This document shows, one piece after another, positions 49,255 to 54,168 of a stretch of DNA of 64,000 nucleotides. The translations under genes and the position numbers were made by a program. This DNA is from Gammaproteobacteria bacterium (GTDB lineage: Bacteria > Pseudomonadota > Gammaproteobacteria > Eutrophobiales > Eutrophobiaceae), in contig CBDCTH010000012.1 in NCBI GenBank assembly GCA_965222155.1, positions 832,001 through 896,000 of the forward strand. The letters are read 5' to 3'. Position 1 is the first letter of the stretch; the number at the start of each line of letters is the position of its first letter. The notes under the pieces are model-generated. The model was given only the letters and a program-made list of their open reading frames with translations, did no database searches and had not been told where the DNA came from.

Positions 49255-49459
49255 ATGGACGGAAAGGAATTCATCTGGTGCGTCAAGCGTTATGCAAGGA
49301 AGACAGGGCAAAAATGTCGTTACGACCCCAGACATGGTAAAGGAAGTCACGGTCGTCTTCATTTGGGCAACCGGCTTACGACTGTTCCGCGCAAAGAGTG
49401 GCAAAGGTCTTTTAGCGGCGATGTTGAAAGACCTTAATATCGATAAAGAGGATTTCTGA
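49255..49459 (+). pseudogene. hicA: Frameshifted HicA toxin
   Basis: GKGSH...TTVPRKE in one frame, GKGLLAAMLKDLNI in another; abuts hicB. Confidence 0.8.
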
Positions 49460-49944
49460 TGTACTACGTTTATCCATGTGTTTTGACCCCGGAGGAAGGT
49501 GGCGGTTTCTACGTAACCTTCCCGGATGTGCCGGGGGCGCTTACCGGCGGCAAGGACCGGGGCGAGGCGCTGGCAATGGCTGAGGATGCATTGACGGCCG
49601 CGCTAGCAGGATATGTTCAAGAGCATTGGGACATTCCGGTACCGAGTGCGGCGGTGGACGGCCAGGAGCTTATTGCCGTTTCACCTGTCGTGGCTGCTAA
49701 ATTGGCACTTTACACGGCTATGCGCCGCCAAGGCATTACGAAAACCGCCTTGGCAAAACGTCTTGGTCTGAGCGAGTCTGCGGTCCGAAAGCTGGTCGAC
49801 CCCGATCATCGCTCTCATATCAGCGGCGTAGAGGCAGCATTACGGGCTGTGGGCAGAGGTCTTGTAATTGGGGACAGAATTTATTTGGAATCTGTTCCTC
49901 AGGAACGGTTATTCAGCCTGAAAACCGGCAGCCACAGCCACTGA
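49459..49944 (+). CDS. hicB: HicB antitoxin with C-terminal HTH
   Basis: YPCVL..EEGGGFYVTFPDVPGALT...EALAMAEDAL; KTALAKRLGLSESAVRKL. Confidence 0.9.
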   Translation: MYYVYPCVLTPEEGGGFYVTFPDVPGALTGGKDRGEALAMAEDALTAALAGYVQEHWDIPVPSAAVDGQELIAVSPVVAAKLALYTAMRRQGITKTALAKRLGLSESAVRKLVDPDHRSHISGVEAALRAVGRGLVIGDRIYLESVPQERLFSLKTGSHSH

Positions 49945-49979
49945 AGTTCAGTGCTTGATTACTGTATAATATTCTATCC

Positions 49980-50237
49980 ATGAACGTGAATGACATAAAA
50001 GAATACGCCCAGCGGGATTGGGCAAAGATTTCCGGGTTGGATCAAATCCATTGGAAGGAAAAATATCTGGGTCATGGCCCTGAAGCCGGTTGGCAGGCGT
50101 CTGCCGCGCTTCGGCAGCATATCAAATCCATTTGCCCGGAATGGCCGGATGCTTCACAGCGTGATGCAGATTTTCAACACCACGTACGCTTCAAACAACT
50201 CCTGGACCGGACCGCGCGTGGCCTCATACCTGGCTGA
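49980..50237 (+). CDS. Hypothetical small protein (putative antitoxin partner)
   Basis: 85 aa, TATAAT just upstream, overlaps the following nucleotidyltransferase gene. Confidence 0.6.
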   Translation: MNVNDIKEYAQRDWAKISGLDQIHWKEKYLGHGPEAGWQASAALRQHIKSICPEWPDASQRDADFQHHVRFKQLLDRTARGLIPG

Positions 50238-50793
50238 TTTATTCTCCTCCCTGGCTATAGTCTTTAATAAGGCGTCATTGCGCTGGTATGTATTTGGCGC
50301 GCAAGCGGCAATATTCTACGGTTCTGTACGACTGACTGCTGACGTGGACGTGACGGTTTTGCCGGGTGATTATCCGCTTGATGACCTGTTGGGTTTATTA
50401 CAGGAAGAAGGTTTTGAGGTTCGCACGTCAGATGTTCATTCTTTGGTTCAGCAAACAAGAGTATTGCCGGTGGTACATACACAATCCAATATGCCCGTTG
50501 ATATCATCATCGGCGGCCCGGGATTGGAAGAACAATTTGCAGCTCATGCCCGGCCTTATGAGTTGGACGGTGTTAGTGTCCCGGTAGTGAGAAGTGAAGA
50601 TCTGGTTGCAATGAAGATCCTTGCAGGTCGGTATAAGGATTTACAGGATGTATTGTCGATCTTGAAATCGCAATCTGCGGGGATGAATATCAATGATATT
50701 CGGGCAACGCTGAAGACCCTGGAGGCGGCTTTGGACAGGAGCGATCTTATTTCTGTTCTGGACAGTCTTATCGCTCAAGCAACGAATTACTAA
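50218..50793 (+). CDS. Pol-beta-fold nucleotidyltransferase (AbiEii/DUF6036-like)
   Basis: FGAQA...RLTADVD...EDLVAMKILAGRYKDLQD; probable GTG start at 50218. Confidence 0.8.
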   Translation: MASYLADLFSSLAIVFNKASLRWYVFGAQAAIFYGSVRLTADVDVTVLPGDYPLDDLLGLLQEEGFEVRTSDVHSLVQQTRVLPVVHTQSNMPVDIIIGGPGLEEQFAAHARPYELDGVSVPVVRSEDLVAMKILAGRYKDLQDVLSILKSQSAGMNINDIRATLKTLEAALDRSDLISVLDSLIAQATNY

Positions 50794-50949
50794 AGGAGTA
50801 GTTTCCTCGGACAAATATTGATGATTCATAATAACCGAAGCCGGTTGGCGCTAATTCTGGTTAATTTTGTAGCGCACCACACTTCCCTGTTCAAGTATCG
50901 CCCGGGCCTGTAGCAATCAATTCCTGCATCCCCGCAATTATTTTGTCCC

Positions 50950-51014
50950 AAATGTGACTTTTCTCACATTTTTGCGCATTTTTTGCTTTTCAACTTGCCC
51001 CGACCGGGTAATAT
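50950..51014 (+). promoter_or_regulatory. Perfect CRP/FNR-family (CRP-type) box plus -10 element
   Basis: AAATGTGA-CTTTTC-TCACATTT at 50950-50971; TAATAT at 51009-51014; box centre is about -61.5 from a start near 51022. Confidence 0.7.
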
Positions 51015-51019
51015 CAGTA

Positions 51020-51380
51020 GCACGGTACGGAAACCGGGTGTGGCTGCTCCGAGTTAGTGGGAATAACGCCGGCGTGGTCGGTCGAACGGAATTCGAACCT
51101 TTTGTTCTTGTTTTGTGATGCTTCTATGCCTGAAGGCAGCCCGGTTTGAGTATCGCCGGGCCAGGGATCAGGGTCAGCCTGAGGGCGCCAACGGGGGGCG
51201 GTTTTCCATAGTCTGCTTCGCCGTCCCCCACTGGCAGGGGTTAAAGCGGGTAACCCTAATATCAGGTTCTGTTACCGAACTAATCACTCTGGCTACCTCT
51301 GTCAGCTGAGACTTCAATGCTACCGTGTGAACGCTAAGATTATGAATAAACCAGTGGAAACATTCAGCGTTAACCCGCAT
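51020..51380 (+). ncRNA. Candidate structured non-coding RNA or long cis-regulatory leader of unknown family
   Basis: Many nested helices with G-U pairs and loop-to-distal complementarities; no credible ORF; promoter upstream. Confidence 0.55.
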
Positions 51381-51392
51381 TTCTCAAGGAAT

Positions 51393-51824
51393 TCAATCTT
51401 CCAACGGATTTACATGAACAATCCCGCTGAAGCGGCGAAAGTCATAATCCGCGGAATATATTTCAGCGCCGTATTCAATAGCTAATGCAGCAAGATGTGC
51501 ATCCGACGTCAGGTTGCCCGCACTCCCTGTCGTACTCAGCAGGTTTCTGAAGATAGGCCAGTGACGCTCTCCGGGGCTTATCAGTTCGACCTGAGGTTGG
51601 TTCAGCCAGCCGTCAACATAAGCAATCGCATGAGTATAATGTAACGGTCTGGCCATGATCCCGGCACGAGTTGTTACACGGATAAACGCCAGGATCACGA
51701 TCCAGGCCAGCCCGAGTTCAATTGATCCCGAAAGCGCCCGTTCCAGCCACCTGTGCGCCCGTTTATGCTGATCAGCATCGCGGTTCACGGCGTATATCAG
51801 AAGATTCGCATCGATTAGGATCAC
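51393..51824 (-). CDS. vapC: VapC (PIN) toxin
   Basis: LIDANLLIYA...DAHLAALAIE...SADYDF. Confidence 0.92.
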   Translation of the reverse strand: MILIDANLLIYAVNRDADQHKRAHRWLERALSGSIELGLAWIVILAFIRVTTRAGIMARPLHYTHAIAYVDGWLNQPQVELISPGERHWPIFRNLLSTTGSAGNLTSDAHLAALAIEYGAEIYSADYDFRRFSGIVHVNPLED

Positions 51825-52090
51825 TTTTTCATTTCCAGTTTCCTGGCGACCTCTTCTTCTTCCAGGTAATCAGCGAGTTCCAGGGCCTTGGTTAAATTAT
51901 AAGCGCCTGCTACTTCCCCCATGGATACGGGTTTTAATCGGTAAGGTTTCGCGTTATCCATGATACGGTCTGAGAATAACCCGGCACGCAAAGTTTCATT
52001 TACAACCTGCTTGTAGCTTTTGCCACTACGGTGCGCAGCATCTTTCAGTGCTTTTGCAATTTTATCATCGATAGTGAGAGTCGTTCTCAT
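51821..52090 (-). CDS. vapB: VapB-type RHH antitoxin
   Basis: MRTTLTIDD...KQVVNETLRAGL; ATGA overlap with vapC. Confidence 0.88.
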   Translation of the reverse strand: MRTTLTIDDKIAKALKDAAHRSGKSYKQVVNETLRAGLFSDRIMDNAKPYRLKPVSMGEVAGAYNLTKALELADYLEEEEVARKLEMKK

Positions 52091-52350
52091 GGCATGACAT
52101 CATAGCATATATATAGATGACATCAAAACATCAATCAAAGGGGTCCAGGTGCCCCCGCTAACTCGAAGTCAATACAGTGATTCTTGCCGGATTCGAAGAC
52201 AGAGGGGACAGATTTAAATCTGTCCCCCAGGAGTCACGGGGCAAGGGAGGGCGTCTCGCCCTCTACGAGGGCAGGATGCCCAGTTAGCGGGAACTGCTGA
52301 AAGGGGTCAGACTCGATTGGTTTTCCAGACACCTTTGCATTGTTGTAAAA

Positions 52351-54168
52351 TCAATCGAGTCTGACCCCTTTGATTTTTTGGTGGGAGCGTATGACGGCAA
52401 GAAAGGTCTCGCCGTATTTTTCCAGTTTGCTCAAGCCTACGCCGCTGACCTGCAGCAGTTCTTCCGGGCTGGCGGGTAAGGTGTTTGCCATTTCTATCAA
52501 GGTTGAATCGTGGAATATCACATAGGGCGGCAGGCCCTGTTCAACGGCCAGCTGTTTGCGGTGGGCCTTGAGTTTTTCCAGCAGGTCGGGATCGTTGGCC
52601 TGTACAGGGGTTTTCTCATGTTGTTTTCTGGTAGGTTTTTTGATCCTGTCGTCCTTGCGCAAGAAAACCTGTGTCCCGCCTTGCAGCAAGGCTTTGCTCT
52701 GTTCGGTCAGTAGCAGGGAGCCGAAACCTTTCATATCAACGGTTAAAAACCGGCGTGCGATCAATTGCCGGAACACGGAGCGCCACTGCTGCATATCCAA
52801 TTCCTCGCCGATACCGAAGGTGCTGAGGCGCTGGTGGTTGAACTTTCTTACCTTGTCGTTTTCCTTTCCCAGCAACACGTCGATCAGGTGCCTGGCGCCA
52901 AAACGCTGGCCGCTGCGATAAACACAGGACAAAGCCTTGCGGGCGGCAGTAGTGCCGTCCCAGGTTACCACGGGATGCAGGCAGGCATCACAGTTACCAC
53001 ACTCGGCAGGGGATTCCTCCCCGAAGTATTGCAACAAGGCATGGCGGCGGCAACTGGTGATCTCGCACAGGCCCAGCATGGAATCGAGTTTATAGCGTTC
53101 GATCCGTTTATGGTTTTCATCCGCGTCCGACTGTTCCAGCATCAGCCGCAGTTTGACCACGTCCTCCAGGCCGTAGACCATCCAGGCGTCGGCCGCCTCA
53201 CCGTCTCGTCCGGCGCGCCCGGTTTCCTGATAATAAGCCTCGATACTCTTGGGCAGGTCCAGGTGGGCGACAAAACGCACATCCGGTTTGTCGATACCCA
53301 TACCGAAGGCAATGGTGGCAACAATAATGATCCCTTCCTCCTGCAGAAAGCGTTGCTGATGTCGGGAGCGCAGGCGCGCATCAAGCCCGGCATGGTAGGG
53401 CAGAGCCGTGCAGCCCTGCTTGTTCAACCAGTCGGCAATGGCCTCGGTTTTTTTGCGCGACAGGCAATAGACGATCCCGGCGTCTCCCTGGTGTTCCGTC
53501 TCCAGAAAATGCAGCAACTGCCGGCGTTCCTCCAGCTTGGTGGTGATCCGGTAGCGGATATTCGGGCGATTAAAACCGCTGGTAAACACCCTGGCGCGCC
53601 GCAGGCCCAGGCGTTCCCGGATCTCAGCGCGGGTCCGTTCATCCGCCGTCGCCGTCAGGGCGATACGTGGAATCGACGGAAAGCGCTGGTGCAGCTGCTC
53701 CAGGGCCAGGTAGTCTTTGCGGAAATCATGCCCCCATTGCGAGACGCAGTGGGCCTCATCGATTGCGAACAGGGCAACCTGTGCCCGTTCCAGCAATGCC
53801 AGGGTGCGTTCCTGTAACAGACGCTCCGGGGCGATATAGAGCAGGTCCATCTCATTATTCAGCAAAGCCTGTTCCGTTTCCCTGGCTGTTTGTACCGGCA
53901 GGGTCGAATTCAGATAGGTGGCCTTGATACCGAGTTGCAGCAAGGCGCTGACCTGGTCCTGCATCAGGGCTATGAGAGGCGAGATGATGATGCCTGTACC
54001 GGGTCGAATCAGCGCCGGGATCTGGTAACACAGTGATTTGCCACCGCCGGTGGGCATGAGGACCAGGGCATCGTTCCCGGCGAGTATGGTGTTGATGATG
54101 TCCTGCTGGTCGCCGCGATAGTCCCGATAGCCGAAAGTATTGCGTAGAATTTCCATTGCCTGTTCCAT
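52351..54168 (-). CDS. recQ: ATP-dependent DNA helicase RecQ
   Basis: [38 protein letters not shown] and HRDC domains. Confidence 0.97.

Follow-up and report, generated by a model that had tools for sequence, protein, structure and literature searches.

The question raised by this locus is what kind of element fills a long intergenic gap behind a perfect CRP-type promoter box. The stretch of DNA that was analysed (the window) comprises 64,000 nucleotides of the forward strand of contig CBDCTH010000012.1 (positions 832,001 to 896,000) in the assembly GCA_965222155.1 of an uncultured gammaproteobacterium, and the gap in question, 600 bp at 50794-51392, lies between a nucleotidyltransferase gene and a convergent vapC. 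The original prediction had described it as an orphan, highly structured RNA of about 360 nt, an undescribed large noncoding RNA or ribozyme or else a leader whose gene was lost. The bases it quoted were found at the positions it gave for them, and both the observation and its interpretation were upheld in part, with the extent and the fold corrected. As set out below, the gap very probably holds one member of a real, conserved family of structured RNAs, a conclusion drawn from the homologues and their covariation.

Homologues and covariation

The description of the RNA as highly structured did not survive an energy test. The minimum free energy (MFE) of the 375 nt at 51018-51392 was -126.1 kcal/mol, as compared with -126.7 +/- 6.1 kcal/mol for shuffled sequences (z +0.09), and the opposite strand (z -0.35) and the conserved part alone, 51018-51243 (z -0.06), also folded no better than their shuffles; the top-scoring copy of the family (L078) gave a z of -1.52. 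Since the energy test provided no signal, the case for an RNA rests on the homologues and their covariation.

The homologues were compared in two alignments, one made with MAFFT from 36 of the 41 distinct copies (four 5′-truncated forms and one near-duplicate were excluded), the other (A2) fitted to the family model and containing 48 distinct rows from 81 matches. The control consisted of sliding the 3′ partners of the proposed pairs by 1-3 columns. In the MAFFT alignment, 86.5% of the cells were paired as opposed to 34-52% after sliding, there were 85 double-change cells as opposed to 15-30, and none of 500 shuffles reached the observed paired cells, double-change cells or covariation score. 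In A2, 88.0% of the cells were paired (33-54% after sliding), with 122 double-change cells and compensatory changes in 26 of the 52 pairs (10-15 after sliding), and again none of 500 shuffles reached the observed values. The covariation that the original prediction proposed to look for among homologues is thus present. Its view that G-U pairs favour the plus strand was also borne out across the family, where the model pairs include 186 G-U cells and 93 A-C cells, an excess that favours the strand read from the promoter. A small protein-coding gene was considered and rejected: among 46 copies, for each of the six frames of the core there is at least one copy in which it closes within 5-25 codons, and the open reading frames (ORFs) seen in different copies use different frames.

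Extent and fold of the RNA

The alignment to other copies runs from 50941 to about 51240, and never further. It begins with a promoter module on the plus strand (50941-51016), made up of an A/T-rich flank, the palindromic box, a T-rich spacer, a weak -35 and a -10, and continues into a conserved RNA of about 226 nt (51018-51243, plus strand) that matches positions 1-225 of the family model R1 with 130.4 bits (E 1e-29). The remainder up to the vapC stop (51244-51392) found only one other match in the source genome by BLAST, 21 nt long, and the 130 nt downstream of 48 distinct copies fall into unrelated groups. Because homology ends at about 51243 in all copies, this spacer is not part of the family element, and the conserved unit, as delimited by comparison of the copies, is the promoter module plus a predicted transcript of about 226 nt, rather than one of about 360 nt. 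With the spacer go several of the originally proposed pairings: the closing stem 51020-27/51321-28 uses the non-conserved tail, the helix 51160-66/51287-93 and the hairpins GGGTTA/TAACCC, GGTTC/GAACT and AACGCT/AGCGTT lie in that tail or pair with it, and both pseudoknots depend on tail sequence that has no homologue in the other copies. What stands of the proposed undescribed large noncoding RNA is a plus-strand RNA, absent from Rfam, behind a CRP-type box and backed by covariation.

The fold was written as a model of nine helices from RNAalifold, sub-alignments for two size classes of copies and pair counts; RNAalifold unaided recovers Pa, Pb and Pd (the closing helix AUGCCY/RGGGCAU, the decamer-decamer helix and the G-rich hairpin). 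The 5′ domain opens with P1 (51023-51036), a hairpin in which CGGU at 51023-51026 pairs with ACCG at 51033-51036 around the hexaloop ACGGAA (51027-51032). Three of its pairs are G-C in 40 of 44 rows, C-G in 43 of 43 and C-G in 42 of 44 across the family, with the loop consensus A-N-GGAAA, and its register in the window copy is shifted relative to the family model. P2 (51041-51080) follows, a long stem (51041-51051 with 51070-51080) and an apical part; of the ten model pairs for which the window copy has both bases, nine form, and compensatory changes occur family-wide in 9 of the 12 pairs of helices 2 and 3, the two parts of which P2 consists. Its length divides the copies into a short and a long class. 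The 5′ domain ends with SL3 (51083-51095), a CGAA/UUCG stem with a C-GGA-A loop, four of whose five pairs form in the window copy; its GGA columns (111-113) are 95-100% conserved, and the stem is well formed in the long-P2 class only. In the long class the apical loop of P2 also carries a run rich in A and made of AAN triplets, ACAAGAAUAAACA (for example L078 1538-1556). This run is conserved there, but absent from the short class linked to proS and degenerate in the window copy.

The 3′ domain (51120-51241, plus strand like the rest) is closed by Pa, in which 51120-51123 pairs with 51238-51241; 95% of its cells are paired, and pair 170:316 is GC in 27 copies, UG in 14 and UA in 2. Inside it, Pb (51128-51186) joins two decamers, 51128-51137 and 51177-51186, which are direct copies of the self-complementary GCCYGARGGC and pair with each other with two G/A mismatches inside. 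All eight of its pairs form in the window copy and 97.6% of its cells are paired across the family, pair 181:237 being CG in 28, UA in 14 and UG in 3, and pair 184:234 being GC in 19, AU in 14 and GU in 12. Pc (51139-51161, GCCCGG/CCGGGC) forms six of seven pairs in the window copy and is paired in 92% of family cells, with little variation. The G-rich hairpin Pd (51187-51235), in two parts, pairs 51187-51201 with 51225-51235, forms 10 of 11 pairs in the window copy and varies at pair 245:307 (AU 27, GC 9) and pair 257:300 (GC 38, CG 5).

Pd is also the point where the originally drawn fold and the family agree, as GCCA-ac-GGGGGGCGG / CCGTCCCCC-ac-TGGC corresponds to it and is the sole helix of that fold that is conserved. 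Of the others, TCAGG/CCTGA is a local alternative to the better supported Pb and is broken by the common variants, those with C at the Pb position or A at the variable bulge position, for which Pb compensates, and AAACCGGG/CCCGGTTT joins segments that belong to two separate family helices, P1 and Pc. An alternative closing helix between the 5′ and 3′ ends was likewise set aside; it is compatible with the sequence, but shows no covariation, its pair 8:307 forming in 17 of 43 rows as compared with 38 of 47 for the Pd pair.

A near-invariant bulge of 14 nt, A-N-GGAUCA-N-GGACA (51163-51176), separates Pc from the 3′ strand of Pb. Over 46 rows, 12 of its columns are 96-100% identical, and the two N positions are free to vary. 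The window copy reads ...GGGUCA here (an A-to-U change) and has lost the second GGA. In addition, the variable base that comes first in the bulge and the base just after Pa change together, C:G with G:C (A2 columns 174 and 218; window positions 51124 and 51164), with a mutual information of 0.90 and Watson-Crick pairing in 36 of 46 rows; the cause may be a tertiary pair or else the division into subfamilies.

The promoter and a candidate regulator

The box, TGTGACTTTTCTCACA (50953-50968), is a perfect TGTGA-N6-TCACA palindrome, and hence has no strand, with A/T flanks and CRP-type half-sites. The -10 hexamer TAATAT (51009-51014, plus strand; TAAAAT in most copies) predicts a transcription start at 51020-51022, about 7 nt past it, which would place the box centre at about -60.5/-61.5. 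This is the class I spacing that had been noted at the outset, and it is kept in the other copies. The half-sites are 5 nt long, TGTGA and T(C)CACA, the sixth position being variable among copies, and a 5-6-5 layout is the CRP pattern. A sigma-70 pattern scan found no complete promoter at the locus, as would be expected if the promoter has a poor -35 and depends on an activator. In the 4.55-Mb source genome there are five exact boxes (3.8 expected by composition), three of them with A/T flanks, and eight relaxed ones, and most boxes of either kind belong to RNA copies; such a small number points to a small dedicated regulon and not to a global one. The regulated promoter accompanies every full copy of the RNA. 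The promoter module also stands by itself, with no full RNA attached, in the source genome at G000:C12:1041438 and 1004522 and in congeners as arrays.

A search of the genome with a CRP model returned a single match, a 245-aa protein with cyclic nucleotide monophosphate (cNMP)-binding and helix-turn-helix domains (cNMP_binding and HTH_Crp_2) that aligns to solved Crp-family regulators; one of its helices reads H-R-E-A-I-T-R where a solved Crp-family protein has S-R-E-T-V-S-R (R-E-x-x-x-R). Its score of 58.8 bits, far under the equivalog cut-off of 266, rules this protein out as an orthologue of E. coli CRP. Genes for it are present in 21 of 22 congeners and in none of 18 more distant genomes (E<=1e-20). 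A similar box stands 47-55 nt past the stop of the regulator gene in seven of eight loci, 21 nt from a -10, i.e., at class II spacing; in the source genome the locus, a CRP/FNR-type gene followed by the box, is L105 1375-2400 (G000:C12:2144561-2145590). Since this box is common to the flank of the regulator's own gene and to the RNA promoters, the genus-specific, cNMP-binding CRP/FNR-type protein is the likely activator of the RNA genes. The box beside the regulator gene is itself followed by a conserved short predicted transcript, in which an AGGAGG ribosome-binding site precedes an ORF of 21 codons.

Copies within and beyond the source genome

The RNA is no orphan. BLAST and model R1 together gave three full copies in the source genome, the second at C4:172633-172916 and the third on the minus strand at C12:~724400-724750, and BLAST two truncated ones (C12:1041438 and C12:1004522) that retain the promoter and the 5′ part only. 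The window copy has the lowest of the three source-genome scores and is among the weakest full-length matches overall; it looks like a diverged paralogue between toxin-antitoxin cassettes. Upstream of its promoter, at 50885-50905, a stretch of Pc (51140-51160) is repeated directly over 21 nt (81%); this may be the relic of a second, decayed copy.

Among 40 relatives, BLAST found matches in 20 of 22 congeners, in neither of two genomes from other genera of the family and in none of 16 from other families. Within the genus, model R1 found 54 copies, spread over 20 of the 23 genomes with 0-9 in each; it found none in 39 genomes from 33 other genera of the family and, under stricter filters, none in 150 genomes from other families of the class. 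A pattern scan of the genomes of 185,579 species yielded 34 loci, with members only in metagenome-assembled genomes titled 'Gammaproteobacteria bacterium'; the other matches were partial, with at most 24 bits. Eleven of the 34 loci were rescored with the model, by which L050 and L061 are members, L040, L041, L044, L049 and L065 were rejected as short partial matches of at most 24 bits, and L046, L053, L055 and L072 were rejected for want of any model match. A scan of metagenomes gave 80 loci (80 of 94 stretches), of which four hold members, with five matches. No match was found in the phage and plasmid collections, and two pattern matches in viral contigs, partial and of 18-22 bits, were discarded as chance. 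As far as searched, the family appears confined to one uncultured gammaproteobacterial genus.

The RNA also belongs to no class that could be recognised, as had been suspected. None of the 4227 models of Rfam 15 matched at its gathering score over the 64-kb window, and at E<=10 the region 50750-51450 gave three chance-level matches, all on the minus strand (18.9, 15.9 and 12.7 bits); ARAGORN found neither a tRNA nor a tmRNA. The family is absent from Rfam 15 and new there. One literature search on proS leaders and structured RNA brought up nothing relevant, papers not having been searched by RNA sequence.

The family could also be a selfish or neutral intergenic repeat whose hairpins are kept for propagation at the DNA level, with the window copy as a decaying relic. 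Other repeat families are indeed abundant beside the RNA copies, truncated copies occur (L004, L005 and 5′-deleted forms of 128-151 nt), the window copy has the lowest score in its genome and has lost a conserved base, and the Pc relic lies just upstream. Such a repeat would hardly be expected to keep a regulated promoter with every full copy, to conserve an unpaired bulge more strongly than its stems, which is the opposite of a palindromic DNA repeat, to prefer G-U over A-C 2:1 on the transcribed strand, to covary in the long-range helices Pa and Pb, or to retain a copy beside proS in at least nine species, and this explanation appears very improbable. In two of the truncated copies, L004 and L005, the RNA is cut after P2 by one repetitive extragenic palindromic (REP)-like unit; units of this kind, built on ATTCCGGC-N6-GCCGGAAT, form tandem arrays (L005 1250-1440; L003 1240-1300 and 1400-1430).

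Genomic context: leader or stand-alone gene

Whether the RNA acts on a gene downstream of it or as a unit of its own was judged from the ORFs around 29 of the 31 model-match loci, as read by the analyst. The gene proS lies downstream of nine copies and probably of one more. The N-terminus of the linked gene matches proS of the source genome, and the one at L075 is identified as proline-tRNA ligase by NCBIfam (567.6 bits); the proS-linked copy of the source genome is divergent from acetolactate synthase. In 7 of the 10 genomes with a single copy, that copy sits at proS, and a syntenic proS-linked copy has been kept across at least nine species. At the other loci, ten copies run in the same direction as an unrelated gene (RelE-like, PIN, an oxidoreductase or unknowns), eight are convergent to their neighbour, including the window copy, whose vapC, convergent as originally noted, carries the Pfam PIN domain, and one is ambiguous, so that there is no bias in orientation.

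The alternative that had been suggested at the outset, a regulatory leader, would in its general form make the element a portable promoter with a 5′ leader that acts in cis on the downstream gene, through RNA stability, anti-termination or Rho control, the convergent copies being either stranded cassettes or sources of antisense transcripts into vapCB. This would explain why no terminator follows the RNA, why a co-directional ORF begins 33-372 nt downstream at 20 of the 29 loci (most clearly at the nine proS loci), why promoter and RNA are always found together, and why the RNA recurs with the same downstream gene in three genomes (L079, L081 and L097). On the other hand, apart from the nearly even split of orientations among the non-proS copies, the downstream genes are unrelated to one another, 8 of 29 loci are convergent, and neither a terminator nor a constant distance to a ribosome-binding site was found; with 33-372 nt to the start codon and intervening sequences that are unrelated between groups, there is no shared expression platform. 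After the RNA, the proS-linked group has TGATATAAT, or a sequence close to it, as a TG-extended -10, so that proS may have its own promoter. Moreover, three congeners that lack the RNA retain proS, with nothing RNA-like within about 1.5 kb of it (best 6.3 bits with filters off), and in the tandem arrays described next the RNA faces away from the adjacent gene. A cis-acting leader is therefore possible but doubtful, and the version in which the window copy is a leader that lost its gene does not stand, in view of the same split in orientation and of the congeners without the RNA at proS.

In three congeners, within polysaccharide-synthesis clusters, a Uma2-family gene and an opposite-strand RNA gene form tandem arrays of 3-6 repeats (L036 11100-14700; L037 1800-6700; L038 9100-18600), in which the RNA is directed towards the Uma2 gene before it and away from the one after it. 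The neighbours of the RNA are more generally often VapBC, HicB, AbiEii-type, RelE-like and PIN cassettes, or genes of the Uma2 nuclease fold. The scattered contexts without bias, together with the separability of the cassettes, suggest an autonomous promoter-RNA unit not tied as a leader to any one gene, and on balance a stand-alone, trans-acting RNA is slightly favoured over a leader.

The company of such genes invites another explanation, namely a catalytic RNA, or the RNA part of a mobile or defence module, with the bulge as an active site or as a pocket for a protein or ligand; a cyclic-nucleotide-type regulator would activate the RNA in stress or infection, and the genes would spread as self-contained units through islands of toxin-antitoxin and nuclease genes. 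The complex multi-helix fold with its 96-100% invariant 14-nt bulge, the change from 0 to 9 copies between species, the frequency of toxin-antitoxin, AbiEii-type, PIN and Uma2 neighbours and the cNMP-binding domain of the regulator would all agree with this, as would the similarity of copies between species, which nearly equals that found inside a single genome (216-222 bits in G001, G007 and G016). No recombinase, reverse transcriptase or nuclease gene is consistently adjacent, however, no terminal inverted repeats or target duplications were noticed in the flanks that were read, the phage and plasmid collections held no match and the two viral matches were due to chance, no Rfam ribozyme matched, and the stable synteny with proS resembles that of a chromosomal gene rather than a parasite. 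This explanation seems improbable. A speculative extension, which we regard as equally improbable, is a new class of regulatory RNA with a dedicated cyclic-nucleotide-responsive activator, in which sensor, promoter and RNA multiply as a module in toxin-antitoxin and nuclease islands and the invariant bulge, within a covarying three-helix core, serves as binding pocket or catalytic centre and not just as a CsrA decoy; one possibility here is that the RNA acts as effector for a cyclic-nucleotide signal in stress or against phage.

A possible decoy for CsrA

What a stand-alone RNA of this kind might do is suggested by its unpaired bases. Of 90 occupied unpaired columns, 24 are at least 90% identical, and 19 of these 24 lie in four GGA patches, in each of which the A and the GGA are fixed and the N is variable; A-N-GGA occurs 3.62 times per copy and 0.92 times in shuffles. 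The review PMC7652899 gives the binding site of CsrA/RsmE as an ANGGAN hexaloop, or as GGA in loops or single strands, and P1 of the window copy carries just such a hexaloop. The source genome encodes csrA (91 bits), while a CsrB model run over the whole of it gave no match. The match of the motif, the presence of csrA and the lack of a CsrB-like RNA are the basis for the following proposal. The CRP/FNR-type regulator would switch the RNA genes on through the class I box, the transcript would fold into its 5′ domain (P1, P2 and SL3) and its 3′ domain (Pa enclosing Pb, Pc, the bulge and Pd), and the RNA would act in trans by binding a protein, for which CsrA is the best candidate, with the four A-N-GGA motifs (one each in the loops of P1 and SL3, two in the bulge) titrating it. 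The reading as a whole, a family of stand-alone genes for trans-acting, protein-binding small RNAs (sRNAs), is put forward tentatively, and its specific form, a decoy for CsrA, is the less probable of the two and should be taken as a conjecture.

A number of points weigh against this proposal. The total density of GGA is low, 5.9 per ~225 nt with 4.6 expected, and in CsrB and RsmZ it is far higher; two of the four A-N-GGA motifs lie only 7 nt apart in one bulge; and the conserved fold appears more elaborate than a decoy needs. Csr/Rsm RNAs end in a Rho-independent terminator. Here no terminator-like site was found on the plus strand after Pd, and the flanks of 48 copies show no U-run in any subgroup, which would be unusual for a stand-alone sRNA and for the Csr/Rsm RNAs in particular. 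About two thirds of the copies, the proS set included, have a co-directional gene within ~370 nt, so that read-through into genes is possible. The promoter carries a CRP-type 5-6-5 box and not the UvrY/GacA box, which is TGTAAGN6CTTACA (PMC3171408). The window copy has lost one conserved GGA in addition to scoring lowest in its genome. Start, end and the transcript itself are predicted from the sequence. As regards the alignments, A2 was fitted to the analyst's own structure, the covariation cells come from related paralogues and orthologues and are not independent events, and several of the double changes follow the split into two subfamilies, which leaves fewer independent events than cells.

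Some further searches bear on the same subject. The best UvrY-family match in the source genome, 177.7 bits and thus below the cut-off of 280, is on contig C10 (the assembly is 7% contaminated). Windows dense in GGA were sought across the genome as candidates for a more canonical CsrA decoy; most of those obtained were coding, and one was a REP-rich tandem repeat. For the invariant core, an antisense target was sought in the source genome at up to 3 mismatches in 21, and none was found except one site with three mismatches and the RNA genes themselves. An intergenic tandem repeat at L124 780-930 (G000:C12:2377380-2377530) forms hairpins ACCGGA-CAGGGAUUG-UCCGGU whose loops display GGA, and may be a further decoy of the CsrA type or simply a repeat.

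If the reading of the A-N-GGA motifs is true, the family would be a case of CsrA control coupled to a CRP-type signal in place of the usual BarA/UvrY-type system. If it fails, the invariant bulge, set in a covarying junction, would be well worth screening for ligand binding or catalysis. The family offers a testable circuit in an uncultured lineage, consisting of a cNMP-type CRP/FNR regulator, a 16-bp box and an RNA, and, if expressed as predicted, it adds a well-defined structured RNA, backed by covariation, with a candidate dedicated regulator.

Neighbouring cassettes and repeats

Around the RNA, at 49255-52090 of the window, small cassettes form a mosaic: a HicB-like gene (Pfam), the AbiEii/DUF6036-type nucleotidyltransferase gene (50074-50793, plus strand, with Pfam matches) and a VapBC pair, formed by vapC (51393-51824, minus strand; Pfam PIN, E 6e-15), which is convergent to the RNA, and a vapB-like partner (51821-52090, minus strand). 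A small ORF just upstream of the HicB-like gene (49255-49437) is a candidate HicA-type gene. The HicB stretch (49400-49877), the nucleotidyltransferase and VapBC each recur separately in other species of the genus: the VapBC cassette is found alone in seven congeners, with homology that begins at the vapC stop, and homology to the nucleotidyltransferase in G002 and G018 stops at the end of the gene. These flanking cassettes were never found elsewhere as an empty site for the window copy of the RNA.

Downstream of the VapBC pair, before and into recQ (52351-54168), two further repeats were observed. The first (52146-52299, ~155 nt) has at least 20 more copies in the source genome with 72-87% identity (most 82-87%), a closing stem CCCGCTAACT/AGTTAGCGGG and an internal hairpin GGGGACAG...CTGTCCCC, and no Rfam match. 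The second is a palindrome (52300-52371) of the AAAGGGGTCAGACTCG... family with 28-nt arms that are 93% complementary; related 'TTTGGGGTCAGAGTAAAAATAC' palindromes flank RNA copies in L003, L008, L012, L017 and L043.

Likeness to known systems

With CsrB, CsrC and RsmX/Y/Z the family shares the character of multi-copy, lineage-specific sRNA genes of Gammaproteobacteria that have a conserved palindromic activator site, as well as A-N-GGA motifs that are conserved in single strands and in the loops of hairpins (for the features of the site, PMC7652899). It differs from the Csr/Rsm sRNAs in having no sequence or model match to them, only four conserved GGA sites in ~225 nt, a CRP-type box, no terminator and, instead of a string of short hairpins, a long-range covarying fold. 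Another parallel is McaS, an E. coli base-pairing sRNA of about 95 nt whose transcription is activated by cAMP-CRP. It has few GGA motifs ('at least two'), and is reported to bind and antagonise CsrA (PMC7652899). Unlike the RNA family, McaS is Hfq-dependent, single-copy and enterobacterial, and no similarity between it and the window RNA was found with Rfam.

The promoter resembles CRP class I promoters in its palindrome with A/T flanks near -61, its weak -35 and its good -10, and the system as a whole departs from that of CRP in its genus-restricted, non-orthologous regulator and its few boxes (five exact, eight relaxed). Mobile promoters and Correia-type elements are promoter-bearing repeats that stand before unrelated genes in variable copy number, with truncated copies among them, and in all of this the family is like them; it differs in that no terminal inverted repeats were noticed and that ~225 nt of covarying RNA with invariant unpaired bases is attached to the promoter. 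Miniature inverted-repeat transposable elements have terminal inverted repeats, a target-site duplication and no internal promoter; neither inverted repeats nor duplications were noticed in the flanks that were read, no formal comparison of boundaries having been made. There is also a likeness to the large or complex bacterial noncoding RNAs found by comparative genomics (e.g., the motif sets of Weinberg et al. 2017 in Rfam), which are likewise conserved, covarying intergenic structures without an assigned function, often in neighbourhoods of mobile or defence type, and from which this family is set apart by a defined promoter, a candidate dedicated regulator and its occurrence in one genus only among the genomes searched.

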